A stretch of DNA of 15,116 nucleotides from Candidatus Firestoneibacteriota bacterium (GTDB lineage: Bacteria > Oederibacteriota > D2-FULL-39-29 > JBDRBU01), in assembly GCA_043822305.1 (NCBI GenBank), contig JBDRBU010000094.1, forward strand, positions 1 to 15,116, in the 5' to 3' direction. The notes beneath the pieces are model-generated. The model had not been told where the DNA came from. It saw only the letters and a list, made by a program, of their open reading frames with translations, and did no database searches. Positions 725-15,098 of this stretch are shown here, piece by piece. Every line of letters starts with the position of its first letter. Position 1 is the stretch's first letter. The translations under genes were made by a program, and so were the position numbers.

Positions 725-991
725 TTGGCTAACATTGATAAAATAGTCAAGAAGATGTTGCAGCGACCAGCTGAAATGCCATTTAATGAAATTAAACGTA
801 TATTAGAATATTTTGGATTCACTTTACGTACTACAGGTAGTGGGAGTAGTCACCTAATTTACGAAAGAGAAAATAGTCGCCCAATAACTATAGTTAAAAA
901 TAAAAAAAAGGTCACAAGGTGGTATATAAAGGATATTGTAAAAATATTAACCTTGGAGGAATGGTATGAAAAAAGGAGGGTTGATGAGTAG
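725..991 (+). CDS. hicA: HicA-family mRNA interferase toxin
   Basis: 88-aa basic protein with the HicA pattern 'F.EIKRILEYFGF...GSSH.IY', including the catalytic His. TTG start with SD AAGGAG; directly upstream of a HicB gene. Confidence 0.88.
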   Translation: MANIDKIVKKMLQRPAEMPFNEIKRILEYFGFTLRTTGSGSSHLIYERENSRPITIVKNKKKVTRWYIKDIVKILTLEEWYEKRRVDE

Positions 992-1451
992 AATGAGTCC
1001 TTACATGAAATTACCCTATACAATCGAGTTGATTCAAGAGGAAGTAGGTGGCTTTCACGTGAAGGTAAAAGAACTTCCTGGATGTATGAGTTATGGAAAA
1101 ACCGCAGCTGAGGCTATCAAGAATATTAAGGATGCTCAGCTATTGTGGATTGAAACAGCTATAGAGAAAGGGATTGACATACCGTCTCCCGATGTTACAG
1201 GGGAATATTCCGGTAAAGTACTGTTAAGGATGCCTAAGTATATCCATGAACGTCTGTCTGGAATGGCAGAAGAAGAAGGGACAAGTTTAAATCAACTTAT
1301 TGTATCACTCCTTTCTGGAAAGTCAGCAATTAAGGAAATGGCAAAAGAATTACAGAAATATGAGAAGTCAAACCAACATCTACACGTATGGAAGATATAT
1401 CCTAACTCGCTAATACCAAAATTTGAAGAGAATGAACATGCCACAGCCTAA
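984..1451 (+). CDS. hicB: HicB-family antitoxin (HicB domain + RHH) with ~44-aa C-terminal extension (putative chaperone-addiction tail)
   Basis: 'ELPGCMSYGKT..EA..N..DA...WIE' HicB fold; 'YSGKVLLRMPKYIHERL..AEEEGTSLNQLIV' RHH domain. ATG 984 follows AGGAGG (974-979) and overlaps the hicA stop; the ORF track starts at 966. Confidence 0.92.
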   Translation: MSRMSPYMKLPYTIELIQEEVGGFHVKVKELPGCMSYGKTAAEAIKNIKDAQLLWIETAIEKGIDIPSPDVTGEYSGKVLLRMPKYIHERLSGMAEEEGTSLNQLIVSLLSGKSAIKEMAKELQKYEKSNQHLHVWKIYPNSLIPKFEENEHATA

Positions 1452-1884
1452 ACCTAAAAACAAAGAAATCACGAAATATAAAAAATTCATAGAAACGCTT
1501 ACTATCCAATCTCTGCGTATTCTTTCTTTGGATGTCAGCGTTGAAGAAAATTTTCACCCTCCAGCTGTAATTATTAAGGAAGAGAAGAAACGCTTTGAAA
1601 AAATAGATAATAAGACGTTTAAAGTTTACCATGAGTATAATATAAATGGCAAAAAGCAAAAAGATGAAAAAATTAAATTAAAAATAAGAGTCGTCTATCT
1701 AATAACTTACCATTCGGAAGTTTCAATTTCCGAGAAGTTCTTTAGCCTTTTGGGAAATTCTTCGCTATATTTACATACATGGCCGTATCTTAGAGAGTTA
1801 GTTCAAGAAATAACAACACGAATGGGTTTACCACCGTTAATCTTAAAGCCCATGTTTGTAAAACACTCGAAGTTGCAGAAATAG
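1432..1884 (+). CDS. SecB-like chaperone (TAC third component)
   Basis: C-terminal 'WPYLRELVQEITTRMGLPPLIL' is the SecB-family helix/loop signature. About 150 aa; overlaps the hicB 3' end. Start is ambiguous (1423 TTG, 1432 or 1438 ATG). Confidence 0.85.
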   Translation: MNMPQPKPKNKEITKYKKFIETLTIQSLRILSLDVSVEENFHPPAVIIKEEKKRFEKIDNKTFKVYHEYNINGKKQKDEKIKLKIRVVYLITYHSEVSISEKFFSLLGNSSLYLHTWPYLRELVQEITTRMGLPPLILKPMFVKHSKLQK

Positions 1885-1969
1885 ATTAAAGTATTTTGTT
1901 GTTAAGCGAGGGTTATTTTTGCTACCAATTTTGATAAATCCACCCTTTCAGCTCTTGTTATAGTATTTT

Positions 1970-2090
1970 TCGGAATTTTTCCGAGCCTATAAAAAAGAGT
2001 TTTCCAAGGCCTATAATAGGACATTATCCCGAGTTTTTTGACACCCTAAAAGAAGGGAATTTCCCACCGCCTATAATAGCTGTTTTCGCC
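1970..2090 (+). repeat. Degenerate direct repeats, consensus TTTTCCnnnGCCTATAAtAg
   Basis: Copies begin near 1977 (ttttccgagcctataaaaa), 2000 (ttttccaaggcctataatag), 2035 (degenerate) and 2060 (tttcccaccgcctataatag). Confidence 0.6.
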
Positions 2091-2127
2091 TCAAATCTCG
2101 CTCAAAAGAGAAAACCTGTTCAATAGG

Positions 2128-2335
2128 CAAGACCTTATATAAAACAAAGGCAAAACGTCTTACAAAATCTTACATTCAGCAAACTGTAAAGACTTGCCAA
2201 AACTTGCATATAAAACGAAGGTAAAAACCTCATATCTAAACTAAACGAAAAGGTTGCATATAACAAATTGCAAAACTTGTCATATAAAAAGAAACCCGGT
2301 GCGATTGAAAGACTTACCAAAACTTAACATTCAAC
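2128..2335 (+). repeat. Array of ~7 degenerate direct repeats, consensus CAAAACTTRCATATAAAA
   Basis: Copies near 2128, 2163, 2198, 2223, 2248, 2271 and 2318. AAAGACTTRCCAAAACTT at 2188-2205 and 2308-2325 match 17/18. Confidence 0.7.
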
Positions 2336-2349
2336 TCAAATTCAATTTA

Positions 2350-2378
2350 TTGCCAATCCACTGTCGGAAGAATATAAT
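2350..2378 (+). promoter_or_regulatory. Candidate sigma70 promoter for the PabI-family R-M operon
   Basis: TTGCCA (2350-2355), 17 bp, TATAAT (2373-2378); SD AGGAGG at 2434-2439 before ATG 2444. Confidence 0.65.
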
Positions 2379-2443
2379 AGGGAAAACAGAAATAATCTGA
2401 ATTTTATAATAAAATAGGTTTCAGTTTAAGGTAAGGAGGAAAG

Positions 2444-3196
2444 ATGGAATATAATGTTAAGGGACGAGATATTTTGATAACTATTCCAGCTGCTAACTAT
2501 AGAGAGTATAGATTTAATAAAAGAAAAAATAGATTAGATTTTGGAGAAACTTTCTCAACAAGAAAGTCTATTTTTGATGAGCAAGTCTATTTAGAATGGC
2601 AAATAGGTTATGATGTCCTAGTTAATGAAGTTGAGAAGGGGGAAAAGAAAACAAAATTAGACAAAAAAGATTTTTTAGGTAGTAACGGCAAGCGCAAGTA
2701 TCCTTCTCAATTGTCAGAAATCTTTTATGCTGCTATTGAATTGGACCTTATCTCAAATAAAGAAGTTAATCATTTGCTTGATGAAATAAGGGGTTATCAG
2801 GGTTTTATAGATGAGAAAACTATAAGCGTAGAGCACCATTCCAAACTTACTATTAACGGAATAAACTTTGAAGAAACAAGCATCAAATTGCCTACACTTT
2901 TTATGATTGAAACCATAGATGAAACACAAATCGAAGTTTCTATTAAAAAACAACAATATGCCACTGGTGTTCAACCTATGGTTTATTTTTGTATACCCAT
3001 TCAATCTTTTATGAATTCGTCTTATCTTTTAGGTAAATCATCTGTTTCGGGAGACAATCTAATATATGTTATAAACAAAAACAATGTTCAAAATCTAATA
3101 AGTTTGATGAAAATTTTCGGTATGGCTTCTAAACGCCATAATTATGATATTGTCCAAATTATTCAAACATTACGTGAAATACATGCAAGTAAATAA
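2444..3196 (+). CDS. R.PabI-family (HALFPIPE) restriction DNA glycosylase
   Basis: 'YLEWQIGYD' and 'KQQYATGVQPMVYFCIP' blocks plus C-terminal 'FGMASKRHNYDI' (HxxD) are characteristic of the R.PabI/R.HpyAXII family. Overlaps a methyltransferase gene. Confidence 0.82.
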   Translation: MEYNVKGRDILITIPAANYREYRFNKRKNRLDFGETFSTRKSIFDEQVYLEWQIGYDVLVNEVEKGEKKTKLDKKDFLGSNGKRKYPSQLSEIFYAAIELDLISNKEVNHLLDEIRGYQGFIDEKTISVEHHSKLTINGINFEETSIKLPTLFMIETIDETQIEVSIKKQQYATGVQPMVYFCIPIQSFMNSSYLLGKSSVSGDNLIYVINKNNVQNLISLMKIFGMASKRHNYDIVQIIQTLREIHASK

Positions 3197-4361
3197 AGCA
3201 GAACATTTGCCGAAACATAAACAAGTCCAGCTTGGGAGTTATTACACTCCAGAAAAATTAACAAGAAGGGTTTACGATTTTATTCAACCATATCTTTCGG
3301 CTCGTCGAAAAAAGATTGTAATAGTTGATAGTGCTGGGGGATGTGGAGCATTTTTAGTTCATGCTAATGGGAATGATTATCGCATAGCAGATAAAGATGC
3401 CAAAGCATGTGCGTTCTTAAGGCAACGGTTTGATAAGAATAAAATATTTCATACAAATTCTTTAACTAGGGTGAGTAGGGAAAAATATTTAATACCCCCT
3501 TCTGCATTTTTAATAATGATTGGAAATCCTCCTTATAATGATACAACCTCGGAGTTTAAGAATGGAAGAAAGGGGAAAAATATATGTGATGAGGATTTAT
3601 ACGATAGAGACTTAGGGGTATCGTTTTTAAAATCATACCATAAACTAAAAGCTGATATTGTTTGCATATTGCATCCTTTATCATATTTAATTAAAGAGAC
3701 TAACTTTAAGCGATTGCGTGTTTTTAAAAATAGCTACAAACTAACAAAAGGAGAAATATTTTCTAGTGCCTTGTTCCACGGAACAGGTTTAATTAAGTTC
3801 CCAATATTGATAGCCCTTTATGAAAGAACTGTAGAAGGAATGACATTTGATTATATTAGGCATTTTAAATTTAATATATTAGGTAGTAATAAGAAATTTG
3901 TTTTATCTAATTATAAAACAACAGACGGCTATATTGATAAATATCCCCCTCGCAAACATGACATAAAAAAGTCTCCTATAGGATTATATTATTACACCTT
4001 TCGTGATTTTAATTCTTTAAAAAAGAACACCTCTTTTATTACGAAAGAGCATCCCAATGGAATTGTTGTAACATTAGAGAACTTTTATAAGTATTCGTAT
4101 CTCTATTCGTTGAAAAGTCTGTTTAAGCCTGAAGATGCGTGGTTATATGGGAATCTGTCTCCCCTCGCAAACATAGAAGATATAGAGCAGAATAAAGAAC
4201 TTTATATCTCATACGCTATTAAAACCAATCAATCTTTCAGAGAAATGGATAATTCTCTTCAGAAAAAAATTGTAAATTATTACAAAATAAAAACTTACAA
4301 TATGGAGCATGTTGACAAGATTGAAAAAACAATCAAGAATAGGTTGAACAGGTTAATTTAA
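3183..4361 (+). CDS. N6-adenine DNA methyltransferase (gamma-type), cognate of the PabI-family enzyme
   Basis: Motif X 'LGSYYTP', motif I 'DSAGGCGAF', motif IV 'GNPPY'. Likely start ATG 3183 overlapping the R gene; the ORF track starts at 3144. Confidence 0.9.
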   Translation: MQVNKAEHLPKHKQVQLGSYYTPEKLTRRVYDFIQPYLSARRKKIVIVDSAGGCGAFLVHANGNDYRIADKDAKACAFLRQRFDKNKIFHTNSLTRVSREKYLIPPSAFLIMIGNPPYNDTTSEFKNGRKGKNICDEDLYDRDLGVSFLKSYHKLKADIVCILHPLSYLIKETNFKRLRVFKNSYKLTKGEIFSSALFHGTGLIKFPILIALYERTVEGMTFDYIRHFKFNILGSNKKFVLSNYKTTDGYIDKYPPRKHDIKKSPIGLYYYTFRDFNSLKKNTSFITKEHPNGIVVTLENFYKYSYLYSLKSLFKPEDAWLYGNLSPLANIEDIEQNKELYISYAIKTNQSFREMDNSLQKKIVNYYKIKTYNMEHVDKIEKTIKNRLNRLI

Positions 4362-4374
4362 TTTTCAAAAAGAG

Positions 4375-4605
4375 ATGTTAAGCGTGGTCATGAAAAATAA
4401 AATTAGTAATGATTCGGGAGCATTAGAATGGACATATTGTAAAAAATGCAACCAAAATACCAATCATCAAATTTCCAAGAATAAAAAAAATATTATAAAG
4501 ATGGATTGTATTTACTGTAAAAATCTAAAAAATAGGGGAAAACATGGTGTTGCGAAGACAAAGCCTAAAAATGGTTGGACTAAATCAGGGTTCACAGTTA
4601 AATAA
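4375..4605 (+). CDS. Small basic putative Zn-ribbon protein, function unknown
   Basis: Two CxxC pairs (CKKC, CIYC); fills the gap between co-oriented genes. No clear SD; start may be 4390. Confidence 0.45.
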   Translation: MLSVVMKNKISNDSGALEWTYCKKCNQNTNHQISKNKKNIIKMDCIYCKNLKNRGKHGVAKTKPKNGWTKSGFTVK

Positions 4606-4639
4606 AACGGAGTCAGGTCTTGCATTAACACATTAAGAA

Positions 4640-5560
4640 ATGACAGCTGCGAAACAAAAATATCTATTCTATGTTTTAGTATTAAGCCTAATTTTCTTAG
4701 CAAGTTGCACCCACAATACCATTAACCAAACAACACAGCTAAACACTCCTCAAGAAACAAAAAAACCTACTGCCATAGAACAGCAAACAATAAAAATAGC
4801 CTCATTTAACATTCAGATTTTCGGCCAGACAAAAATAAAAAATGATGAAGTCATGCAGATAATCTCAAAAATAGTCAAACAATATGACTTAGTTGCAATA
4901 CAGGAAGTAAGAAGCACTGAACAAAATGTTATACCCACCTTGCTGAATTACATTAATGACGCCAATACAAAATATGACTATATAATAAGTGAAAGGTTAG
5001 GCAGAAGTACGAGCAAAGAGCAGTATGTCTTTGTCTATAACACAAAAACAATAAATCTTATTCCAAATAGCAGTTATGTTGCAGGAGACCCTGACGATGT
5101 TTTTGAAAGAGAGCCGTTTATTGCTTCTTTTAAAGCAGGGAATTTTGATTTCACAATAGTTGATAATCACGTCAAGCCTGAAGATGTAGAGGCAGAATTA
5201 ACACACCTGAAAATAGAAATAAATAAAATCTATGATGGCTCTTCTGAAAAAGATGTTATAGTTGTCGGAGATATGAATGCAGACGGCTCTTATTTTAAAG
5301 AAGAAAAACTGGCTGTAATTTTACCTGAATGGACACAGATGATTGGGAATAATGTAGATACAACAGTCGGAACTGCTGATAACACCTATGATAGAATGAT
5401 GACAAGAGATACAACTGCAAACGTGGAATATACTGGCAATTCAGGAGCATTCAGATGGGATACTGAATATAACGTAACAGATTCTGCTTTTATCAAGAAA
5501 GTTTCAGATCATTATCCTGTATACGCTGAATTTAGGGTTGATTTGCAGGATGATGATTAA
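4640..5560 (+). CDS. DNase I-like exonuclease/endonuclease/phosphatase (EEP) lipoprotein
   Basis: Signal peptide with lipobox LASC. DNase I motifs IASFNIQ.FG, DLVAIQEVR, SERLGR.TSKEQY.FVY, FEREPF, GDMNAD.SY, YDR and SDHYPV. Confidence 0.92.
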   Translation: MTAAKQKYLFYVLVLSLIFLASCTHNTINQTTQLNTPQETKKPTAIEQQTIKIASFNIQIFGQTKIKNDEVMQIISKIVKQYDLVAIQEVRSTEQNVIPTLLNYINDANTKYDYIISERLGRSTSKEQYVFVYNTKTINLIPNSSYVAGDPDDVFEREPFIASFKAGNFDFTIVDNHVKPEDVEAELTHLKIEINKIYDGSSEKDVIVVGDMNADGSYFKEEKLAVILPEWTQMIGNNVDTTVGTADNTYDRMMTRDTTANVEYTGNSGAFRWDTEYNVTDSAFIKKVSDHYPVYAEFRVDLQDDD

Positions 5561-5592
5561 GAATCAGGAAAGATTTATTAAGAGCCGGAGCA

Positions 5593-7023
5593 ATGTTTAG
5601 AATGGGAGGCAAGATTAAAATGCCTATAAAAAAATCTATAGTACAAAATTATGATAATTGGGTTAGAAGAAAAGAAAGTATTGCAGACTTATTTCTTGAT
5701 CTAGAAAATATCCGATTACAAGTGGAAGGACAAACTTCACAGGATGCTTTAATCAATGATCTTTTTTTGAATGAAGACGCTATGCAAACATTAGAAAGCA
5801 TAGCTACAAACGGCTTTTTCCCGGACGAGATCCCCGTCGTCATTAGGGAAAACAAAAAACTTGTTGTCATTGATGGCAACCGAAGAGTTGCTGCTTTGAA
5901 AGTATTACTACATCCAGAAATTGTTCCGTCAAAAGAAACAAAAATTAGGGAATTAATAAAGAGTGCAGGGCCATTAATTAAGGAAATGGAGGTTGTTTTG
6001 GCCCCGGATCGCGATTCAGTTAGACACTTTTTAGCAAGCAAACATACACACGATACAAGACGACCTTGGCGACCATTAAGACAGGCTTATTTTTATAAGG
6101 CAGAACTTGCTAGAGGCAAAACCGTTCAAGATTTAAGAAAAGAATATCCAAATGTTGATATAGATAAATTCTTAAAACTTATCAATATTCATAGAATCGC
6201 CAAATCCATACAATATGATTCTGATCAAGTAACGAAGAAAGTTCATAACGAACGCACTTTCCCTGCTTCCACAATCGGAAGGCTGTATGAAGATAAGCGG
6301 GTGAGAAATTTTCTTGGTTTCGATTTTGATAAGAACGGAGAAGTAAAAATACAAATTAGCAAAAAGGAATTTGAAAAGGGATTTAAAAAGATTGTACAAG
6401 ATGTTGTAGATAAGATCGTCGATTCACGTTCTTTAAACACCGAGAAGAACAGGAAAGATTATCTTGCCACTTTTTCAAAGGCAGAGATTCCCAATAAGAC
6501 AAAAAGTGGGGGTATCATTACAAGCAAGGATTTCAAAGAGACCATCCCTCTCACTATTAAGAAAAAAACAAAATTAGCACCGAGAGATATTGATTTTACG
6601 CTTCAGTGTCCCGGGGTAGGAAGAATGCTTAGTGAGCTTCAAAAGATAGATTACCATAAGTTCCCGAACGCATCTCACGATCTTCTGAGAAGTTTTCTTG
6701 AGTGCGCCCTTAAGGCCTATTTTTATCAAAAAGGCACACAAATTAAGCCAGCTGGCAAATTTGTATATCTAAATGATGTTTTGCGAGAATTTAAGAAGGA
6801 GATGGATTCTACAAAAAATATCGAGCTATCCCAAGTCACACAGAGAATAATCAGTAATACAAACATGAATTCTTATTCCGTACAATTCCTTAATGCAGTA
6901 AATCATAATTCAAGCGTTTTTGCCATTGCTAAAGACGTAGAGGACGCATGGGATACAATGGAAAAACTATTCCGCTACATTTTAAATCCCAAGAAAAAAC
7001 AAGATGATAAAGATAATATATAA
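5593..7023 (+). CDS. ParB/Srx-like N-terminal domain protein with HEPN-like C-terminal domain; probable defence effector
   Basis: 'LDLENIRL' and 'VVIDGNRRVAALK' ParB/Srx motifs. C-terminal 'LLRSFLECALKAY ... FLNAVNHN' resembles HEPN helices with a terminal His motif. Start may be 5620 (SD GGAGG 5605-5609). Confidence 0.68.
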   Translation: MFRMGGKIKMPIKKSIVQNYDNWVRRKESIADLFLDLENIRLQVEGQTSQDALINDLFLNEDAMQTLESIATNGFFPDEIPVVIRENKKLVVIDGNRRVAALKVLLHPEIVPSKETKIRELIKSAGPLIKEMEVVLAPDRDSVRHFLASKHTHDTRRPWRPLRQAYFYKAELARGKTVQDLRKEYPNVDIDKFLKLINIHRIAKSIQYDSDQVTKKVHNERTFPASTIGRLYEDKRVRNFLGFDFDKNGEVKIQISKKEFEKGFKKIVQDVVDKIVDSRSLNTEKNRKDYLATFSKAEIPNKTKSGGIITSKDFKETIPLTIKKKTKLAPRDIDFTLQCPGVGRMLSELQKIDYHKFPNASHDLLRSFLECALKAYFYQKGTQIKPAGKFVYLNDVLREFKKEMDSTKNIELSQVTQRIISNTNMNSYSVQFLNAVNHNSSVFAIAKDVEDAWDTMEKLFRYILNPKKKQDDKDNI

Positions 7024-7852
7024 AAGAAATCTTAAGTTTCATTATAGTCCTTTAAGATATCCAGGAGGGAAAACTTTTCTATTTTCATTTTTTGATAAAG
7101 TAATCAAAAAAAATGGATTGGGAAATATTACTTACATAGAGCCATTTGCAGGAGGAGCTGGCGCAGCATTAGCTTTATTGTTTTTAGAAAAGGTGGAAAA
7201 AATAGTTATTAATGACCTTGATAAGGCGATTTACTCTTTTTGGAAATCAGCAATTTTTGATTCAGAAAAATTTATAAAAAAAATATTCTCAACACCGATT
7301 TCTATTAAAGAATGGAGAAAACAAAAGTTAATTTATAAGAATCCAAAATCCGATTGTTTTGATTTAGGGTTTGCAACCTTCTTTCTGAACAGAACTAATA
7401 TTTCTGGTATAGTCAATGGAGGTCCAATTGGTGGCATCCAGCAAAAGGGCAAATGGAAAATAGATGCGAGATTCAATAAAGAAAAATTGGCTGAAAGAAT
7501 ACGTCAATTATCCTTGTATAAAAATAGGATTTCAGTTTTTAATAGAGATGGAGTTGATTTGATGAAGGGCTATCTAAATAAAAAAAATGTTTTTATATAT
7601 CTTGACCCACCATATTACGAGAAGGGCGCTACGTTATACCTGAATCACTACAAAAAAGAGGATCACGAGGTGCTCGCAAAGCTATTAAATTGTAATCCAG
7701 ATGCATTTTGGTTACTCACTTACGACAATAAAAAAGAAATAAAATCCCTTTATCCAGAAAGAAAGATAGCTAATTTTTCGTTAAACTATAATGCCTATGA
7801 ATCTTACAAGGGAAAAGAAATATTGATTTCATCTGATGCCCTTGTGGTTTAA
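7004..7852 (+). CDS. Dam-like (D12 class) N6-adenine DNA methyltransferase
   Basis: 'SPLRYPGGK', 'EPFAGGAG', 'FFLNRT' and 'YLDPPYY'; overlaps the upstream gene by 20 bp. Confidence 0.93.
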   Translation: MIKIIYKRNLKFHYSPLRYPGGKTFLFSFFDKVIKKNGLGNITYIEPFAGGAGAALALLFLEKVEKIVINDLDKAIYSFWKSAIFDSEKFIKKIFSTPISIKEWRKQKLIYKNPKSDCFDLGFATFFLNRTNISGIVNGGPIGGIQQKGKWKIDARFNKEKLAERIRQLSLYKNRISVFNRDGVDLMKGYLNKKNVFIYLDPPYYEKGATLYLNHYKKEDHEVLAKLLNCNPDAFWLLTYDNKKEIKSLYPERKIANFSLNYNAYESYKGKEILISSDALVV

Positions 7853-7928
7853 TTATGCAGCTCTTTCTTTTTCCTAAGATAGAAAAATTATTAAGGCAAA
7901 AAATCTACCTATATTGAGGTAATATAAA

Positions 7929-9794
7929 ATGACATCATATACTTCCGTCACTGCAGAAGCCCATACCCCGCCTTATAAAATACATAGATACTTTGCAAGA
8001 AGGCCTTGGAATGTCTTTAAGAACTTGATAGAAACCTTCAGTAAGGAAGGCGATATTATTTTAGATCCTTTTTGTGGTGGAGGCGTTACCCTTTACGAAG
8101 GACTCAAAGTTGGGCGAAAAGTTGTTGGATTGGATTTAAATCCTCTTTCTATTTTTCTTGTAAGAAATATGATAAGAAAAAAGGTAGATTTTATAGAACT
8201 TAATTCAGCCTTCCAAAAGATAAGTGATTATTTAAAACATCTTTATGGTGATTATAATCTAGTTGATTGTGAGTCTAGGCAAAAAACTTTATTAAAAGAG
8301 AAAATTGAAATTGAATGGAACGAACTTACATTTTATGCTTTTTGCAATCTTTGTGGGCACAAAGTATTGTTATCAAACAAAAACAGAATATCAAATGGTA
8401 GATATTCTTGCTCAAATTCTAGTTGTAAAGGTAACAAAAATAATGATGGTTTCATTGAACCAAAAAATTGTAAAAGAGATGGTTATAAATACCTTTACTC
8501 TGTAATTTATTCTCCTATAGACAGAAAAAAGATAATCATTGAATATGATGATGAAAGGAACAAAAAGTTAAATAAGCACATAAAATTCTTAGAAAAAGAA
8601 ATTAGCAAGAATAAAATTGAGATCGGAAAAGACGAAATTCCACTTAATTGGGATAGACAATATGAAGACCTGCTATACAAAAAAGGTATAAAATATTTTC
8701 AAGATTTATTTACAAAAAGGAATTTGTTAATTAATTTATTGCTTCTTAACTATATTTCTAAGCTGAATATAACTAAGGATACATACGAAGTGTTAAGACT
8801 TGTTTTTAGTAGTTCTCTAAGAGATACCAATATAATGTCTTTTACAAATAGTGGATGGCAATCAGGTAAGCCTACTACTTGGTCTAAGCATGCTTATTGG
8901 GTCCCCTCTCAATTTTGTGAAAATAATGTTTTATCTTCATTTAAAAAGGCATTTAATAGAGTACGAAGTGCATTTCTTTTTAATGAACAATTCAACTATG
9001 AAGTAATTCCTGTGAATAGATTTGACACTTTAAGGGACAAAGGAAATATACTTTTGTTAAACGCCTCAATTGATGAGGTAAATATTCCAGATAATTCCAT
9101 TGATACAATTATTACAGACCCTCCTTATGGAAGCAATGTCCAGTATTTGGAGTTATCACATTTTTGGTATGTTTGGAATAAAGACTTATATGAAACTAAA
9201 ACCCTAAATTTCTTAAAAGAGGCTGTTGCTAATAGAAAGAAGAATTTCGTTGGCGCTAAGTCTATGAAAGATTATGAAAATAATCTATTCTTAGTATTTC
9301 ATAAATCTTATCATGTTTTAAAACCGAATAGACATATGGTTTTAACATTTAATAATAGAGATATTGGGGCTTGGTTGGCATTGCTTATTTCTATATTTCG
9401 TGCAGGTTTTACATTAGAAAAAGAAGGATTATATTTCCAGGATGGAGTGGATAATTACAAACAGACTGCTCATACTAAATACGATGGTTCTCCATATGGA
9501 GATTTTATTTATGTTTTTAAGAAAGATACAAAGAAAAAAATTGGATTAAAGAACATGACAGAGACAGATTTTATCAAGGATTTAGATATGATTTTTGCTA
9601 CTTATCTAAACAATTTTAATAATTCAAGATATGACAGAAATGAAGTTATAAGGAAGATGTTCTTAAAAGTAATACCTAAAATAGAAATATTTGTTAAGTC
9701 CAATCTTTTAAAAAGCGATAAACATAATTTATATACTCACTTTGACAAAAACTATCTACGAAGGATATACACCCCAAATGACAAGAAAGAGTGA
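7929..9794 (+). CDS. Amino-DNA methyltransferase (DPPY) with Cys-rich insertion
   Basis: N-terminal 'IHRYFARRP' and motif I 'LDPFCGGG'; CNLC...CSNSSC Zn-finger-like insert; motif IV 'ITDPPY'; SD GAGGT. Confidence 0.88.
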   Translation: MTSYTSVTAEAHTPPYKIHRYFARRPWNVFKNLIETFSKEGDIILDPFCGGGVTLYEGLKVGRKVVGLDLNPLSIFLVRNMIRKKVDFIELNSAFQKISDYLKHLYGDYNLVDCESRQKTLLKEKIEIEWNELTFYAFCNLCGHKVLLSNKNRISNGRYSCSNSSCKGNKNNDGFIEPKNCKRDGYKYLYSVIYSPIDRKKIIIEYDDERNKKLNKHIKFLEKEISKNKIEIGKDEIPLNWDRQYEDLLYKKGIKYFQDLFTKRNLLINLLLLNYISKLNITKDTYEVLRLVFSSSLRDTNIMSFTNSGWQSGKPTTWSKHAYWVPSQFCENNVLSSFKKAFNRVRSAFLFNEQFNYEVIPVNRFDTLRDKGNILLLNASIDEVNIPDNSIDTIITDPPYGSNVQYLELSHFWYVWNKDLYETKTLNFLKEAVANRKKNFVGAKSMKDYENNLFLVFHKSYHVLKPNRHMVLTFNNRDIGAWLALLISIFRAGFTLEKEGLYFQDGVDNYKQTAHTKYDGSPYGDFIYVFKKDTKKKIGLKNMTETDFIKDLDMIFATYLNNFNNSRYDRNEVIRKMFLKVIPKIEIFVKSNLLKSDKHNLYTHFDKNYLRRIYTPNDKKE

Positions 9795-11103
9795 ATGTAA
9801 GCTGATTCGAAATCAGTTAAAGTATAAAAAATTATATCCGGCATATCTTAGAATGCTATATACTTTAAACAGGGAATATAGAGTAAAGAAAGAACATTCG
9901 TTTTCTGATTTAGTAAACTTTAAAACAAATAAAGAAATTCCTAGACACAATTGGTTTTTTTATAAACAGGGCTATTCTGAGAAGTTAGTCAGTGAACTAC
10001 TCCTTAAAGAAAAACCTCCCAAGACTCGCTATGTATTAGATCCTTTTACAGGAGTCGGAACAACTAATCTTGTTGCAAAAAGTTTAGGATATAGAAGTAT
10101 AGGATTGGATATTAATCCTGTAGCTACCTTTGCAGCAAAAGTAAAAACTACTACATTTTCAAAACAAGAGATCAATAAAATAAATACTATGATTAAATTA
10201 TTTTCACCTACAAAAAAGAGTCAGATTATACCTATTTCCCCCTTACTTGAAAGGTCTTTTTCTAAGATTGCCTTTAATAAATTAATGCATATAAAGAGGT
10301 TTTTTGAGTCAATAAAAGATAAAAAAATAGCCTCTTTTTTTAAATTGGCATATCTTTCTATTATCGAAGATTGTTCTAATAGAATAAAAGATGGTAACGG
10401 ACTTAAGATTGCTATGAATAAGAGGAAAATACGAGATATTTACAGCTTCTATATTAATAAATGCAAGGTAATGGTTAATGACATTTATAGATTAAATTCT
10501 GGTAAAAAACCCATAATAATCAACGGTTCTATATTACTAAAAGAACATTTTGATAAGATAAAAGATAAAAAAGTAGGTATTGTTATTTTTTCTCCACCTT
10601 ATCTTAACTGTTTTGATTATTGTGAAGTATATAAACTTGAATTATGGATGGGGGGGTTTGTTAATAATTATGAAGATTTTAAGAAATATCGGACAATGGC
10701 AGTGAGGTCCCATGTTAATTCAGAATTTAATCATTGTATACAAAATCCTAATGCTAAAGTTAAATTAATCTCAGAAACAATATCTTGTTTCAACATTTGG
10801 AATAAAAATATTCCTGATATGATAGAAGGATACTTTGACGACATGACCAAAATGTTTAAGAAATTACACTTTCTTATGGTAAAAGGAGGTAAGTGCTTTA
10901 TAGTTATTGCTAACTCGGGATATAAGGGTGTATTAGTGCCAACTGATTTGTTGCTCGCAGATATTGCTAAAATGAATGGTTTTAAAGTTGCCAGTGTTAT
11001 ATATGCACGAAAAATTCGAGCTTCATCTCAACAAATGAATGAGCTACATAATACCTATAAGAATCTAATCAGGGAAAGCATAGTTGTCTTGGAGAAAAAA
11101 TGA
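9778..11103 (+). CDS. Amino-DNA methyltransferase, SPPY type (probably N4-cytosine)
   Basis: 'HNWFFYKQGYS', motif I 'LDPFTGVGTT', motif IV 'FSPPY', C-terminal 'RESIVVL'. ATG 9778 preferred over TTG 9742. Confidence 0.88.
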   Translation: MTRKSECKLIRNQLKYKKLYPAYLRMLYTLNREYRVKKEHSFSDLVNFKTNKEIPRHNWFFYKQGYSEKLVSELLLKEKPPKTRYVLDPFTGVGTTNLVAKSLGYRSIGLDINPVATFAAKVKTTTFSKQEINKINTMIKLFSPTKKSQIIPISPLLERSFSKIAFNKLMHIKRFFESIKDKKIASFFKLAYLSIIEDCSNRIKDGNGLKIAMNKRKIRDIYSFYINKCKVMVNDIYRLNSGKKPIIINGSILLKEHFDKIKDKKVGIVIFSPPYLNCFDYCEVYKLELWMGGFVNNYEDFKKYRTMAVRSHVNSEFNHCIQNPNAKVKLISETISCFNIWNKNIPDMIEGYFDDMTKMFKKLHFLMVKGGKCFIVIANSGYKGVLVPTDLLLADIAKMNGFKVASVIYARKIRASSQQMNELHNTYKNLIRESIVVLEKK

Positions 11104-13970
11104 AATTTCATCCATTACTAAAATCTAAGATAAAGAGTTGGAATGAACTAGAGAAACATATAGAACAACTGCCAAACACAAAAGAAATGGGAAATGTTTT
11201 TGAGCAGTTTGTATATGTCTATTTTCTTATCAAGCACAACTTATATCAAATAGCTGAGCACTATATGGAGAAAGATATTCCCTTGGAATATAGGAGAAGG
11301 TTTAATTTTGAAAGATATGATTGCGGAGTAGATGGTTTAATTATATTTAAAAATGGCAAAAGCGCCGCTTATCAAGCAAAATTTAGAAGTGATAGAGTGC
11401 AACCTTCCTATGCCGAATTAACAAAGTTTTGGGCTGAAGCAAAATCAACTGATTACAATTATACGGTAGCAAATTGTTATTACCTTTCTAGACTTTGCGC
11501 GAAACAACCGAAGCATCTGAGTATTTTGGTTGATGAGTTTGAAAATTTAGGTTCAGAATTTTTTAATGAATTTTATCTATGCATTAATGCAGAAAAACCA
11601 AAGCGTCAATTATATGCTCCTGATAAATTCCAGCAAAGAATGATTGGTAATGTGTTGAAGGGCTTCACAAAATATAATAGAGGGAAATTGATTGCCGCTT
11701 GTGGTACTGGCAAAACTTTAACAGCTTTATGGATTTCTGAACTTATGAAGACTCAGAAGGTTCTTTTTTTAGCACCGAGTTTAGCTTTAATAAAACAGAC
11801 ACTAGAATCATGGACAGAGCAAGCCAGTAGAGATTTTTCTTATTTGTGTGTATGTAGTGATAAAACGGTTTCTGACGAAATAGACAGTGGAGACATTAAG
11901 CTATCTGATTTTAATGTCCCGGTTACAACTTCCCCTAATGATATTTGTAAGTATTTATCGCAAAAATCAGAAGAGAAAAAAATAATTTTTTCTACTTATC
12001 AATCACTAGATGTCTTATCTGAAAGCATAAATAAATTGGTTGGATTCACATTTGATTTAATAGTATTTGATGAAGCACATAGGACTGCCGGCACAAAAGA
12101 TTCCTCTTTGTTCTCGTTAGCTCTTTATGACCAAAATATCCCATCAAAAAAGAGGCTTTTTATGACTGCAACTGAGAGATTAATTAGGCCATGGATTCTG
12201 AAAAAAGCGAAAGAGTTTAATAGAGTTGTTTTTTCAATGGACAATCCAGAACTATACGGTCCTGTTTTTGATAGATTTAATTTCGGCGAAGCTATCCAAA
12301 ACAAAATTATTTCTGATTACAGGATTATTGTTGCAGGAGTTAAAGCAAAAGAGGTATATGGTTGGATTAAAAGTAATAAATTGCTGGTTCATACTGAGAG
12401 TGGTTCTAAAGAATATTTCACATATGCTCAAAATATATTTCGACAGATTATGTTAATCAAGTCAATGCGTAATTTTAAAATGAAAAAATGTATAACCTTC
12501 CATTCTAATATTAAAAATGCAGTTTCATTTATTCGAGGAGTGAGTTCAGAAGATACTAATTTAAGGCAAGTGTTTAGTAGGCTTTGGCCAGAGTTATACG
12601 GAAAGGATTTATATCTAGATCATGTTAACGGCACAATGAGCGCAGGAGACAGAAAAGAGCGCCTAGATATTTTTAGGGATTCTAAATTTGGTGTAATTTC
12701 TAATGCAAGATGTTTAACCGAAGGAGTAGATGTTCCAATTATTGATAGTGTTTATTTTGTCAATCCAAGGCATTCTTTGATTGATATTGTCCAAGCCTGT
12801 GGAAGGGCTCTAAGAAAACCAAGAGATAAACATGATAAATTAGCATATTTCATCGTGCCTATTTTGATACCAGATATAGATGAAAAAGTGGACATTATTA
12901 ATGAAGTTGATTTTGAAATGCTACATGATTTGATACAGTCATTAAGAGACCAGGATCAACGACTTTCAGAGTGGATAGATAAAATTAATCTTAGTGCCTC
13001 TCAAGGTAAAACATATAGATTTTCTGAGGGGTCAGATAGTCCAATAATTCTTAATTTACCTGCTGAGTTTAATGTGAAAGATTTTGAAAAGAAATTATAC
13101 CTGAGGATTGCAGAGGTAAACAGAAATCCAACGCACTTTGACTACAAAACTAGGAAGTATGGTAAAACCGAGAGAAAAAGTGAGTATAAGAGAATATTCA
13201 AAACCCTTGGGGATTATTCAGTTGAATCTTATAAGAATAACTTGGTTATGCCCACCATAAGGAAATTTCAATCTAAAGACCAGACATTATCTACTGCAAA
13301 ACTTAAAATTAATCATAATAATATATCTCACACTGAGCGATTGGGTTTAATAATTAAGGAGAAAACTGGATATAAGTTATCTCCTTTAGGAATTCAGCTT
13401 TTTGAGGATAAAATTAATTTTGAATTATTATTTAAACAACAAATGTTAAGATATTTCTCATCTGATAAGCAAGGAGGGCGTATTTTATTCCCATACAGAG
13501 CTTGCTTAAAGATATTATTAGAAGCCAAATCAATTAATTTCATTGAATTCGCTTTCGGCTTATATTCATTAATAGATTCATCAGAAGAATCAATTATCGC
13601 AGGGGCAGAAGACACAAAGTTTCTGAGAGAAAAATATCCCAATTTGGAAATTTTAAGTGAAACGAATAAACATAAAGTTTTAAAAGAATTGAATAAATAT
13701 TTTGGGACAAACTTTTCAGTAACAGACATCTGGGCTAAAAAAACAACAATTAATAATCAATATATCTATTTTAGAAATCATCTTTCTTTATTCAATGATT
13801 TTATTGTTATAGATGAAAAAAACAGAACTATGACTCTCATCAAAGGCAAAGAAAAAGCACTCAAAGAATTATTATTAAGAGACTCTTTGCTTGAATATGA
13901 AAAAGACGAGACTATCCTAAAAAAGAAATATATTCAAAAACTCATAATATTCATGCTTTTTTCTTTATAA
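11100..13970 (+). CDS. Mrr-like PD-(D/E)xK nuclease fused to an SF2 (DEAH) helicase and a C-terminal putative DNA-recognition domain; restriction enzyme
   Basis: 'GNVFE...DCGVDG...YQAK' nuclease; Walker A 'ACGTGKT', 'FDEAH', 'MTAT', 'LTEGVDVP', 'IVQACGRALR'; about 270 additional C-terminal residues. ATGA overlap with the upstream MTase. Confidence 0.87.
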   Translation: MKFHPLLKSKIKSWNELEKHIEQLPNTKEMGNVFEQFVYVYFLIKHNLYQIAEHYMEKDIPLEYRRRFNFERYDCGVDGLIIFKNGKSAAYQAKFRSDRVQPSYAELTKFWAEAKSTDYNYTVANCYYLSRLCAKQPKHLSILVDEFENLGSEFFNEFYLCINAEKPKRQLYAPDKFQQRMIGNVLKGFTKYNRGKLIAACGTGKTLTALWISELMKTQKVLFLAPSLALIKQTLESWTEQASRDFSYLCVCSDKTVSDEIDSGDIKLSDFNVPVTTSPNDICKYLSQKSEEKKIIFSTYQSLDVLSESINKLVGFTFDLIVFDEAHRTAGTKDSSLFSLALYDQNIPSKKRLFMTATERLIRPWILKKAKEFNRVVFSMDNPELYGPVFDRFNFGEAIQNKIISDYRIIVAGVKAKEVYGWIKSNKLLVHTESGSKEYFTYAQNIFRQIMLIKSMRNFKMKKCITFHSNIKNAVSFIRGVSSEDTNLRQVFSRLWPELYGKDLYLDHVNGTMSAGDRKERLDIFRDSKFGVISNARCLTEGVDVPIIDSVYFVNPRHSLIDIVQACGRALRKPRDKHDKLAYFIVPILIPDIDEKVDIINEVDFEMLHDLIQSLRDQDQRLSEWIDKINLSASQGKTYRFSEGSDSPIILNLPAEFNVKDFEKKLYLRIAEVNRNPTHFDYKTRKYGKTERKSEYKRIFKTLGDYSVESYKNNLVMPTIRKFQSKDQTLSTAKLKINHNNISHTERLGLIIKEKTGYKLSPLGIQLFEDKINFELLFKQQMLRYFSSDKQGGRILFPYRACLKILLEAKSINFIEFAFGLYSLIDSSEESIIAGAEDTKFLREKYPNLEILSETNKHKVLKELNKYFGTNFSVTDIWAKKTTINNQYIYFRNHLSLFNDFIVIDEKNRTMTLIKGKEKALKELLLRDSLLEYEKDETILKKKYIQKLIIFMLFSL

Positions 13971-14010
13971 ACTTCATAAATAAATTTTTATATATTTTAT
14001 TAACCTGATA

Positions 14011-14046
14011 AAAAAGTTCACTTTACATAGGAAGTGCGAACTTTTT
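14011..14046 (+). terminator. Imperfect hairpin with A- and T-tracts after the R-M operon; coincides with the left recombination-like site
   Basis: AAAAAGTTC-ACTT-tacatagg-AAGT-gc-GAACTTTTT, 40 bp after the stop at 13970. Confidence 0.45.
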
Positions 14047-14258
14047 CATTTTATCCTCTAATTCCTATCTGATTCATTTCACGTCGTCAAATCTATTCTT
14101 CTAATATTTCTCTATTTCTACAACCTACTAATTTATTCTCTCCGTTTTCCTTCTATTTCTCATTTCCAGAATCCTACTCTATAAACCGGCGTCGGAAAGC
14201 TTAAATACATCTATTTCGCCTTTATTATAGCAGTTCACCTTTCCTATGAATGATGAAC
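14016..14258. mobile_element. Candidate invertible DNA segment bounded by inverted 26-bp sites
   Basis: GTTCACTTTA-CATAGG-AAGTGCGAAC (14016-14041) and GTTCACCTTT-CCTATG-AATGATGAAC (14233-14258) are 19/26 identical as reverse complements, with an identical centred core. The second site ends 7 bp before the recombinase ATG. Confidence 0.62.
14224..14232 (-). promoter_or_regulatory. Extended -10 element TGcTATAAT on the minus strand inside the candidate invertible segment
   Basis: + strand ATTATAGCA is the reverse complement of TGCTATAAT. The -35 position currently reads CATTCA (poor). Confidence 0.55.
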
Positions 14259-14265
14259 ACACAAA

Positions 14266-14880
14266 ATGACATTTACGTGGATATTAGACGAAAGTAAGTA
14301 CCTAAAAACAGAAGAAGTGAGAAAGCTCATGGATACCTGCCGGGAATTAATGCGAAAACACAGAAGTTATCTGGCAGTCAGGAATTGTTTCATGGTTGAA
14401 CTCGGCTTGTTTACAGGATTGAGAGTGAAGGAAATGGCTAACCTGAATTGCGGTGATCTTTTAATCGGAAATGAGCAATCCACATTAATAGTAAGCAAAG
14501 GCAAGGGAGACAAGAAAAGAATTGTAAAACTCAACAGTGAATTTAGAAGAAAATGCTTAAAGTTTCTCAAATACAAAGAAAAAATAAATCAAAGTATAAG
14601 TGAAGATTCTCCACTGTTCTGTTCTCTTTCAGGCAGAAGATTAACTAGAAGAGCATTGCAAAAATCATTCAAGAAATGCATGGAAATCGCAGAATTGTCT
14701 GAGCATTACGGAATTCACAGCTTAAGGCATACATATGCCTCTCATTTATACAAGGCAAGCAATCACAATCTCAGATTAGTGCAGGAGCAATTAGGACATT
14801 CTTCTATAAAAACGACAGAAGTTTATGCAAATCTGATGGCAACAGACGTGAATGAAGCGCTTGAAAATCTTTACAAGTAA
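14266..14880 (+). CDS. Compact tyrosine recombinase (catalytic domain only; XerC/D-like motifs, FimB/FimE-like size)
   Basis: Catalytic set R (TGLRVKE), K (KGKGDKKR), HxxR (HSLRH), H (LGHSS), Y (TTEVY). 204 aa, with no N-terminal arm- or core-binding domain. No SD upstream. Confidence 0.94.
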   Translation: MTFTWILDESKYLKTEEVRKLMDTCRELMRKHRSYLAVRNCFMVELGLFTGLRVKEMANLNCGDLLIGNEQSTLIVSKGKGDKKRIVKLNSEFRRKCLKFLKYKEKINQSISEDSPLFCSLSGRRLTRRALQKSFKKCMEIAELSEHYGIHSLRHTYASHLYKASNHNLRLVQEQLGHSSIKTTEVYANLMATDVNEALENLYK

Positions 14881-14891
14881 GGAGGTGAGCG

Positions 14892-15098
14892 ATGTTTGAG
14901 TATTGTGGCTGGTGTAACAAACATATCAATCTTCTGAATTTTCAGAAAGTTGCATTAAGAATAAACGGAAATATTGAAAAGAAAAGATTATGGTTCTGCG
15001 CGCCAAGATGTCTTCTTGAATTTAACAGGCTTTATGAAGGAAGTAATTTCAACATGCGACTTGACGTTCCAAAAGCATTGAAAGCAGGTAAATGGTGA
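14892..15098 (+). CDS. Small putative treble-clef Zn-finger protein (TRASH/YHS-like)
   Basis: CGWC...WFCAPRC pattern; strong SD AGGAGGT at 14880-14886. Another SD (AGGAGG) at the window end implies the operon continues. Confidence 0.7.
   Translation: MFEYCGWCNKHINLLNFQKVALRINGNIEKKRLWFCAPRCLLEFNRLYEGSNFNMRLDVPKALKAGKW

Follow-up and report, generated by a model that had tools for sequence, protein, structure and literature searches.

The probable switch locus

We analyzed a 15,116-bp stretch of DNA (the window), which is the whole of contig C94 in a 2.15-Mb metagenome-assembled genome (G000; 125 contigs, 31.6% GC) of a Candidatus Firestoneibacteriota bacterium. The subject is a 295-bp gap near its right end, between a same-strand restriction-modification (R-M) cluster (2444-13970), encoding an R.Pab1-like endonuclease, several N6/N4 methyltransferases, and a ResIII helicase, and the gene of a tyrosine recombinase (14266-14880). 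Two 26-bp sites in inverted orientation lie in this gap and enclose a segment of 191 bp. The left site begins 45 bp behind the end of the ResIII gene, which is read on the same strand as the recombinase gene. As described below, this segment is very likely a flip-flop switch of a widespread and apparently undescribed family. The coordinates are given in Table 1.

Inverted recombination sites in a family of loci

Relatives of the recombinase were collected by a scan of one genome per species. This gave 79 loci with a recombinase identity of 42-93%, in bins labelled Omnitrophota, Planctomycetota, Nitrospirota, Elusimicrobia, Paceibacterota, Zixiibacteriota, Desulfobacterota, and others, some of them archaeal. 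Three close relatives are referred to repeatedly: L006, L007, and L008, with recombinases 95%, 93%, and 66% identical to that of the window. L006 is a single 1145-bp contig, the one recovered by a metagenome scan for close relatives, and starts inside the segment.

We searched for two GTTCA-N16-TGAAC-type sites lying 120-420 bp apart, the right one adjoining the gene start. The 75 loci in which 300 nt or more of upstream DNA was available could be tested. As a result, an inverted site pair was found 5' of the recombinase in 60/75 loci, compared to 5/75 for direct repeats and 0/73 in control stretches taken inside or behind the genes. Because the search maximised complementarity, the control runs are the fair comparison for these counts. 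The window itself showed the layout of an inverton, namely inverted repeats, a short segment, and an adjoining recombinase gene. It contained just two GTTC-N16-20-GAAC matches, which are the two sites, with 67 such matches in the whole genome; GTTC-N6-CATAGGAA matched only these two sites genome-wide. The right-site core TTCCTATG at 14241-14248 is the inverted counterpart of CATAGGAA at 14026-14033.

Across the family, the arms of the sites are conserved and the centres vary, with 32 distinct central 6-mers among the 60 loci. Within a locus, the two centres are reverse complementary, and the inverted core match reached at least 7/8 in 48/60 loci, showing that the cores co-vary. The spacing between the sites had a median of 229 bp and was ~205-296 bp in 57/60 loci. 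Taken together, these patterns identify the two 26-bp sites as genuine, inverted recombination sites. A search for a third site was negative in the own genome and in G061, the genome that carries L007. A near-match in contig C57 of G061 was dropped, as it lies inside a glycosyltransferase gene and its second arm is missing.

The genes behind the recombinase encode mostly secreted or surface proteins (pilin-like N_methyl, OMP beta-barrel, PEP-CTERM, lectins, PEGA, lipocalin-like, and PD40/PPC proteins). Defence genes take this place in some loci (AAA_21 plus RloB, Schlafen/HATPase_c_4, and HsdM). Surface and defence genes are typical targets of phase variation.

Evidence for inversion

Next, the orientation of the segment was compared between loci. 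The L015 segment aligned to those of L014 and L017 only as the reverse complement (100 vs. 26 and 106 vs. 23), whereas the flanks outside the sites kept the same sense. Similarly, the L013 segment aligned only in reverse to L020 (79 vs. 18), L021 (75 vs. 17), and the window (59 vs. 18). L013 and L015 were each opposite to 55/59 other loci; L077 was ambiguous (33/59). In both flipped loci (L013 and L015), the left site contained the distinctive inner half-site that otherwise belongs to the right site; this exchange is what crossing over within the core would produce. These alignments indicate that inversion occurs in the family.

For the strain of the window, inversion would follow from what its relatives do, and one metagenome contig gives a hint. 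Record 1 of run X1 (1730 nt) matched the window solely at 14026-14248, that is from core to core and on the opposite strand, with unlike sequence of 1485 nt and 22 nt on either side. A flipped allele with another left flank could produce such a match. The idea that the window itself is in the flipped state, which came from the minus-strand Shine-Dalgarno (SD) sequence and ATG at the left end, was dropped, since internal motif order, base composition, and alignments all gave the common orientation. In the same run X1, summed contig depth peaked at 480-580 over window positions 14228-14323, which take in the right site and the initial 60 nt of the recombinase gene, and was ~150-300 elsewhere; 53 contigs aligned at 85-100% identity. 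A single biofilm metagenome seems to contain many variants of the module side by side.

A proposed promoter split across the left site

A preliminary description of this DNA had proposed that inversion would join two separated promoter halves, and the sequence bears out its elements. TTTACA, at the outer arm and core edge of the left site, is followed at 17 bp by TTCATT (14045-14050) as assembled. The minus strand reads TGCTATAAT from 14232 to 14224, and the -35 hexamer at 17 bp from this extended -10 element (TGcTATAAT) is the poor CATTCA (2/6). We flipped 14034-14240 in silico, placing the crossover in the shared core CATAGGAA / TTCCTATG. The resulting left junction carried TTTACA, a 17-nt spacer, and TATAAT with TG at -15/-14. 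This match of 11/12 points rightward, toward the recombinase, as had been expected.

Such matches are rare in the genome. At least 11/12 was reached 273 times in the 2.15 Mb on both strands, and 70 of these carry TG, a rate of 1.6e-5 per position and strand (70 in 4.3 million position-strands). With ~30 straddling positions, two junctions, and two directions, the chance of a junction match was ~0.002, for a question framed post hoc. An open reading frame (ORF) of at least 100 aa started within 250 nt downstream of 112/267 of these matches (42/68 in the TG subset), compared to 5728/44400 random positions. Because the matches front ORFs far above random positions, we conclude that the organism uses the sigma-70 consensus including the TG extension.

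After the virtual flip, a left-junction match of at least 9/12 was obtained in only 2/60 loci, the window and L007. In L008, scanned to 8/12, no convincing junction or outside promoter was seen. L007 is a 93% relative, and the two loci amount to one evolutionary event. The preliminary description had itself named conservation of the hexamers and their spacing in homologues as the point on which its proposal would stand or fall, and the 2/60 loci count against a family-wide design. The sequence TGcTATAAT is identical in L006 and L007. The flip improves its -35 from 2/6 to 5/6 in the window and from 3/6 to 5/6 in L007.

To call the promoter created at the junction, and not re-oriented, was an overstatement. 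The extended -10 lies wholly inside the segment and may fire in either orientation, plausibly to the left as assembled. Inversion is better described as re-orienting the extended -10, by which its direction, the quality of its -35, and the downstream sequence would all change; the hybrid -35 may contribute to its strength. The element does not contain a complete promoter of the fimS type, as the -10 is inside the segment and the -35 is in the core and outer half of the adjacent site. This -35 was nearly present beforehand, in that the typical family site has TTTTCA or CTTTCA where the window has TTTACA.

Table 1. Features of the switch region and of the genes behind it, in window coordinates
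Feature	Position	Strand	Description
Bidirectional terminator-like hairpin	A-run 14010-14015, left site, T-run 14042-14046		
Left recombination site	14016..14041		26 bp, GTTCA-N16-CGAAC, imperfect palindrome
TTTACA, -35-like (5/6)	14022..14027	+	Spans outer arm and core edge of left site
8-codon mini-ORF with SD-like AGAGGA (14059-14054) and ATG (14049-14047)	14023..14059	-	Exits through left site
Core CATAGGAA	14026..14033	+	Inverted-sense match to 14241-14248; presumed crossover region
Invertible segment	14042..14232		191 bp; + strand pyrimidine-rich (G 0.07, C 0.25)
TTAAAT-16-TATTAT, weak promoter-like match (8/12)	14201..14228	+	Overlaps minus-strand -10
TGcTATAAT, extended -10	14224..14232	-	Right inner end of segment; points left as assembled, right (to recombinase) if flipped
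Right recombination site	14233..14258		26 bp, GTTCA-N16-TGAAC; core inverted relative to left site
7-codon upstream ORF	14246..14269	+	ATG in right-site core; TGA stop overlaps recombinase ATG (ATGA)
Tyrosine recombinase	14266..14880	+	204 aa, catalytic domain only, Xer-like; PF00589 at 1.1e-31
Cys-rich ORF	14892..15098	+	68 aa (CxxC ... FCxxxC); strong SD in front; second operon gene

Outside promoter and leader

We then examined the DNA outside the left site and the leader formed by the segment. In the 60 nt 5' of the left site, a + strand promoter of at least 9/12 was found in 38/57 loci; the opposite strand gave 9 such loci, and a control stretch 260-320 nt upstream gave 5. At least 10/12 was reached in 27/57 loci (opposite strand 2, control stretch 0), and at least 11/12 in 16/57 (0 and 0). 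Moreover, conservation between loci starts right at the -35 of this outside promoter. The window contained no promoter of at least 9/12 in this stretch, the best being 8/12, and thus no outside promoter of the type known from the cwpV switch of Clostridioides difficile. L007 and L008 are also without one.

The leader is asymmetric throughout the family. The purine fraction of the + strand segment was below 0.45 in 48/60 loci; the two flipped loci, L013 and L015, were the sole ones to exceed 0.55. The first 10 nt behind the left site contained a mean of 6.3 T as assembled vs. 4.2 if flipped. An SD-like 4-mer stood 5' of the right site in 14/60 loci in the purine-rich state vs. 3/60 in the other, a difference that is not independent of composition. 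The genome encodes Rho, the closest named match of which comes from a Candidatus Firestonebacteria bin (78% identity). In many loci (e.g., L014, L016, L032, L046, L051, L061, and L077), the common orientation has a conserved ATG 17 nt 5' of the right site. This ATG extends the recombinase N-terminus by ~10-25 residues (M..F.KKFIKLMK...), and the other orientation keeps only the core ATG. The two orientations may therefore encode two recombinase isoforms.

In the window, the assembled left site is predicted to fold into a hairpin (-9.8 kcal/mol), behind which the + strand reads UUUUUCAUUUU and the minus strand UUUUUUAUC. When flipped in silico, the + strand hairpin was of -13.1 kcal/mol and was followed by UGCUAUAAU, with no U-run. 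A terminator was thus predicted in only one orientation, as in cwpV-type switches. The prediction that the flip would move the T-tract away from the left hairpin was therefore correct; non-T sequence takes the place of the T-run (14042-14046 onwards). In the flipped form, AGAGGA, four bases, and ATG open a 14-codon upstream ORF, the TGA of which overlaps the recombinase ATG. This ORF arises because the mini-ORF at the left end fuses in frame with the upstream ORF of the right site. L007 keeps the ATG and frame of the mini-ORF with a weaker SD, and the arrangement of the right-site upstream ORF is also seen in L007 and L008.

A model of the two orientations

On balance, we favor with moderate confidence a reading in which 14016-14258 is an inverton, the 191-bp segment of which is flipped by the downstream 204-aa recombinase, with the assembled orientation OFF and the flipped one ON through the junction promoter. 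The assembled state is probably OFF or low in expression. This assignment had been made before; it draws on the direction of the promoter, the loss of the terminator, the contrast of a purine-rich with a C-rich leader, and the coupling of an SD-led upstream ORF to the recombinase start.

In the assembled state, the left site with its T-run would terminate any transcript arriving from upstream, and the leader is C-rich and G-poor, which is the common pyrimidine-rich state of the family. The sole strong promoter element, TGcTATAAT, faces left, into the left-site hairpin and U6. Since hairpin and U-run are also present on the minus strand, the leftward RNA would be ~215 nt long, purine-rich, and end at the hairpin. 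The weak + strand match TTAAAT-16-TATTAT could supply basal recombinase expression in this state; its TTAAAT is part of a motif kept in many homologous segments.

Upon inversion, the -10 would come to lie 17 bp from TTTACA and point rightward (11/12 plus TG). The U-run would be gone and the leader purine-rich, so that RNA formerly stopped at the hairpin would run on through the right site. Translation of the SD-led 14-codon upstream ORF would couple to the recombinase start through the ATGA overlap. The operon would consist of the recombinase, the 68-aa Cys-rich protein, and a secreted PD40/PPC protein, the last one seen in relatives. Recombinase, small ORF product, and surface protein would be produced jointly in the ON state. 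Because the recombinase would be made fully only in ON, a quick, pulse-like return to OFF would result. On this ground, the earlier proposal that the promoter drives the recombinase and the downstream operon in a self-resetting manner is reasonable as regards its logic. A fast return would also fit the rarity of the purine-rich state, which had two clear cases in 60.

Several points weigh against this model. The junction promoter is limited to one shallow lineage (2/60 loci), and L008 has no equivalent. As an extended -10 often works without a -35, the hybrid -35 may add little. The ATG that extends the N-terminus is present in the common state, so that the recombinase is probably made there too, and "OFF" may be only relative. 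The purine and SD asymmetry and the majority-state argument bear on the assignment indirectly. Lastly, no read or contig showed both orientations of the window's own locus, no public run contained more than 7% of the sampled words, the aligned contigs yielded no joints (stretches without cover being uninformative), and all copies of the clade that have been assembled (window, L006, L007, and L008) have the same orientation.

Alternative explanations and descent of the module

A different mechanism, which we consider rather unlikely for the window, is a leader switch similar to cwpV or flgB. Transcription would come from upstream, by read-through from the R-M operon or from a weak outside promoter, and the segment would act as an orientation-dependent leader (terminator and/or Rho entry vs. 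read-through), with TTTACA and TATAAT incidental. A fixed outside promoter is indeed the norm of the family (at least 9/12 in 38/57 loci). Strand asymmetry and a T-run behind the left site occur throughout the family, the window included; Rho is encoded; and 45 bp separate the left site from the end of the same-strand ResIII gene. However, the outside promoter of the window is at best 8/12, and the 11/12 match with TG stands at exactly the place where inversion would use it (chance ~0.002). The comparison with L007 is also informative. The two have no DNA in common left of the site, and homology begins at the A-run of the left site. Because the upstream DNA is unrelated in L007, the conserved module cannot rely on it. 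The change of left neighbour excludes that an outside promoter was kept, and the -10 on the segment with the -35 in the site would be a self-contained replacement. The segment itself is ~90% identical between the window and L007 and has the same orientation; both sites and the -10 are unchanged, whereas ~1 base in ten differs between them.

This sharp left boundary would also suit another interpretation, in which a mobile cassette uses the sites for attachment or as its boundaries. In that case, the recombinase would mainly integrate and excise the module, and the inverted pair would be a by-product. The module DNA, from the left site through the recombinase and small ORF, is ~90-94% identical between C94 of G000 and C60 of G061 (L007), and the recombinase 93%. 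In contrast, Rho is only 63% identical between the two bins, and Rho of other phyla reaches 74-78%. The module has therefore moved between genomes, or a contig is mis-binned. In line with movement, conservation in other loci begins right at the -35 of the outside promoter, and some genomes contain several copies. Among 60 relatives of the genome, no recombinase homologue was found at E <= 1e-30, and no contig of any run covers the window left of ~13988. Nevertheless, the sites are inverted rather than direct, their spacing stays at ~205-296 bp in 57/60 loci, no third site was seen in the own genome or G061, flipped alleles exist, and mis-binning could mimic transfer. We therefore regard integration and excision as an improbable main function of the sites.

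The weakest alternative, an inactive relic in which sites and recombinase are kept by recent descent only and the promoter junction is a product of chance, would suit the single orientation of the window, L006, L007, and L008 and the AT-rich DNA (31.6% GC), but it is very improbable given an intact recombinase with all catalytic residues, sites and a -10 on which the window and L007 agree whereas their segments differ at about one position in ten, and X1 record 1, which fits a flipped allele.

We tentatively suggest, as a possibility, that a horizontally mobile, self-contained cassette (promoter, ~200-bp inverton, minimal Xer-like recombinase, and swappable surface or defence cargo), of which the window has one member, serves across many bacterial phyla and in archaeal-labelled bins as a self-resetting pulse generator, with full recombinase expression confined to the ON state. 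In the lineage of the window, the outside promoter would have been lost and rebuilt split across the site, to be complete only after a flip.

The recombinase and the Cys-rich ORF

The recombinase matched the tyrosine recombinase family PF00589 with 110 bits (cut-off 27). Residues R53, K80, H151, R154, H178, and Y187 were invariant among 18 aligned sequences. Scores of 124, 121, and 119 bits against the XerC, XerD, and XerA models were below the NCBIfam cut-offs of 220, 335, and 330, and these profiles were matched over the C-terminal catalytic part only (e.g., 93-261 of 263). Similarly, it scored 33 and 29 bits against the FimB/FimE-type invertase models NF007370 and NF007371 (cut-offs 221 and 222), and 70 and 48 bits against the integron integrase models TIGR02249 and NF011946 (cut-offs 265 and 435), again with matches confined to the catalytic half of the models; the layout of the genes upstream of the switch is not cassette-like. 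In plasmid and phage collections, the best matches of the recombinase were generic Xer-like proteins of at most 36% identity. The recombinase ATG has no SD of its own.

Homologues of the Cys-rich ORF were found 3' of the recombinase in L007 (3627-3833) and L032 (1033-1227). These ORFs are 64-68 aa long with the pattern MF-E/D-YC-x-WC ... LWFC, in three loci that are otherwise only ~50% related. No Pfam or NCBIfam model matched the Cys-rich ORF, which could be an accessory DNA-binding factor of the switch. The contig end falls at the SD of a third operon gene. In L006 and L007, the product of this gene has a signal-peptide-like N-terminus, and in L007 it is 665 aa long with PD40 and PPC domains. 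A search of the own genome found neither the continuation of the operon nor the upstream flank of L007.

Further observations on the module and its surroundings

The segments contain two further motifs, which recur across phyla. The first, CGTCG(A), lies ~40-60 bp from the left site (about 14078-14092 in the window). The second, CGTCG-N5-20-CTTAAATA, or TTTATAAA in Planctomycetota-type loci, lies ~40-60 bp from the right site (14190-14210 in the window) and is opposite in sense in a few loci. A role of this inner motif (CGTCG ... CTTAAATA / TTTATAAA) as a general -35/-10 pair was dropped, because the spacing is unfit and the sense is opposite in some loci. The motifs may bind an accessory or DNA-bending protein. 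In L014, L015 (reverse strand), and L017, a strong SD within the segment is followed by a 17-27-codon hydrophobic ORF (MI.L...LSF...). This ORF is conserved among the three, which are of different phyla by label, and has no counterpart in the window.

Several bins contain 2-3 module copies (e.g., L027, L042, and L053). The bin of L007 has a partial second recombinase copy at a contig start (L089; G061 C35, 1-165), 78% identical to residues 150-204. The recombinase was also found in archaeal-labelled bins, namely L025, L047, L077, and L078 (Woesearchaeota, Bathyarchaeum, an unnamed archaeon, and Aenigmatarchaeota). Three of these passed the site-pair filter, and at least L077 has a bacterial-type TTGACA/TATATT outside the left site. 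Such carriers point to transfer or mis-binning.

On the far side of the switch, a HicB-like antitoxin ORF (966-1451) stands ahead of the long same-strand R-M and defence cluster (966-13970 in all). The cluster further includes a D12 methyltransferase and an endonuclease/exonuclease/phosphatase protein, and its ResIII helicase is 956 aa long. L007 also has an N6/N4 methyltransferase directly upstream of the left site, though the DNA there is unrelated to that of the window.

Comparison with known systems

In the open literature searched, we found neither a description of this switch family nor a phase-variation switch with a naturally split promoter. Most of what is known about invertible switches comes from cultivated bacteria associated with hosts. 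The loci analyzed here point to a compact switch family that is very widespread among uncultivated lineages of the environment. Its members share a 26-bp site, a minimal cis-encoded recombinase of 204-230 aa, and a conserved layout, and they provide a testable model for the phase variation of surface and defence genes in groundwater and sediment microbes. With regard to evolution, the same module is seen with two kinds of regulation, in which the promoter is either fixed ahead of an invertible leader or divided across the site. For engineering, an attractive part would be a recombinase reduced to its catalytic domain, with built-in self-regulation and a pair of small, portable sites. In our view, this family-level result outweighs the split-promoter claim in interest.

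In C. difficile, the recombinase RecV is encoded away from the cwpV switch. The recombinase described here, in contrast, is encoded in cis directly behind the switch, which would also control it; it has 204 aa with the catalytic domain only and comes from uncultivated lineages. In the lineage of the window, moreover, the -10 lies on the invertible segment. The cwpV switch is a ~195-bp segment between inverted repeats, located between promoter and gene and inverted by a tyrosine recombinase; the OFF state was proposed to be due to an intrinsic terminator formed in one orientation, and the controlled gene encodes a surface protein (PMC2784873). The norm of our family, a fixed outside promoter and an invertible leader, has a similar layout. 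The flgB switch of C. difficile has an invertible 5' leader with Rho-dependent, orientation-specific termination after initiation (PMC7446863). The strong C over G asymmetry of the leader in one orientation and the presence of a Rho gene would fit a mechanism of this kind. Base composition is what suggests that Rho may take part here.

We would place the window variant closer to a fimS-type invertible promoter with a hybrid -35, and the family closer to leader switches of the cwpV or flgB type. The fimS element of Escherichia coli is a short invertible element with promoter function, acted on by the ~200-aa recombinases FimB and FimE, with orientational control of fimE. Unlike fimS, which contains the whole promoter, the present element has its -35 in the fixed half of the left site. 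Its recombinase gene also lies downstream of the switch, and the protein does not reach the cut-offs of the FimB and FimE models, which places it outside that group.

The nearest precedent for a promoter that is assembled by recombination and drives the recombinase is, in our assessment, the junction promoter of insertion sequences (IS) of the IS2/IS3 family. In the minicircles of these elements, Pjunc is a strong promoter only after recombination, with the -35 in one end, the -10 in the other, and a mandatory 17-bp spacer (PMC3219604). Pjunc is similar to the junction promoter proposed for the window in that it drives the recombinase itself, there a transposase (PMC3219604). The two differ in that a DDE transposase and circle formation underlie Pjunc, which is no reversible phase variation, whereas a tyrosine recombinase and inversion would operate here. 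If the model is true, a promoter complete only after the flip would be a natural counterpart of the IS junction promoters and of synthetic recombinase-latched split promoters.

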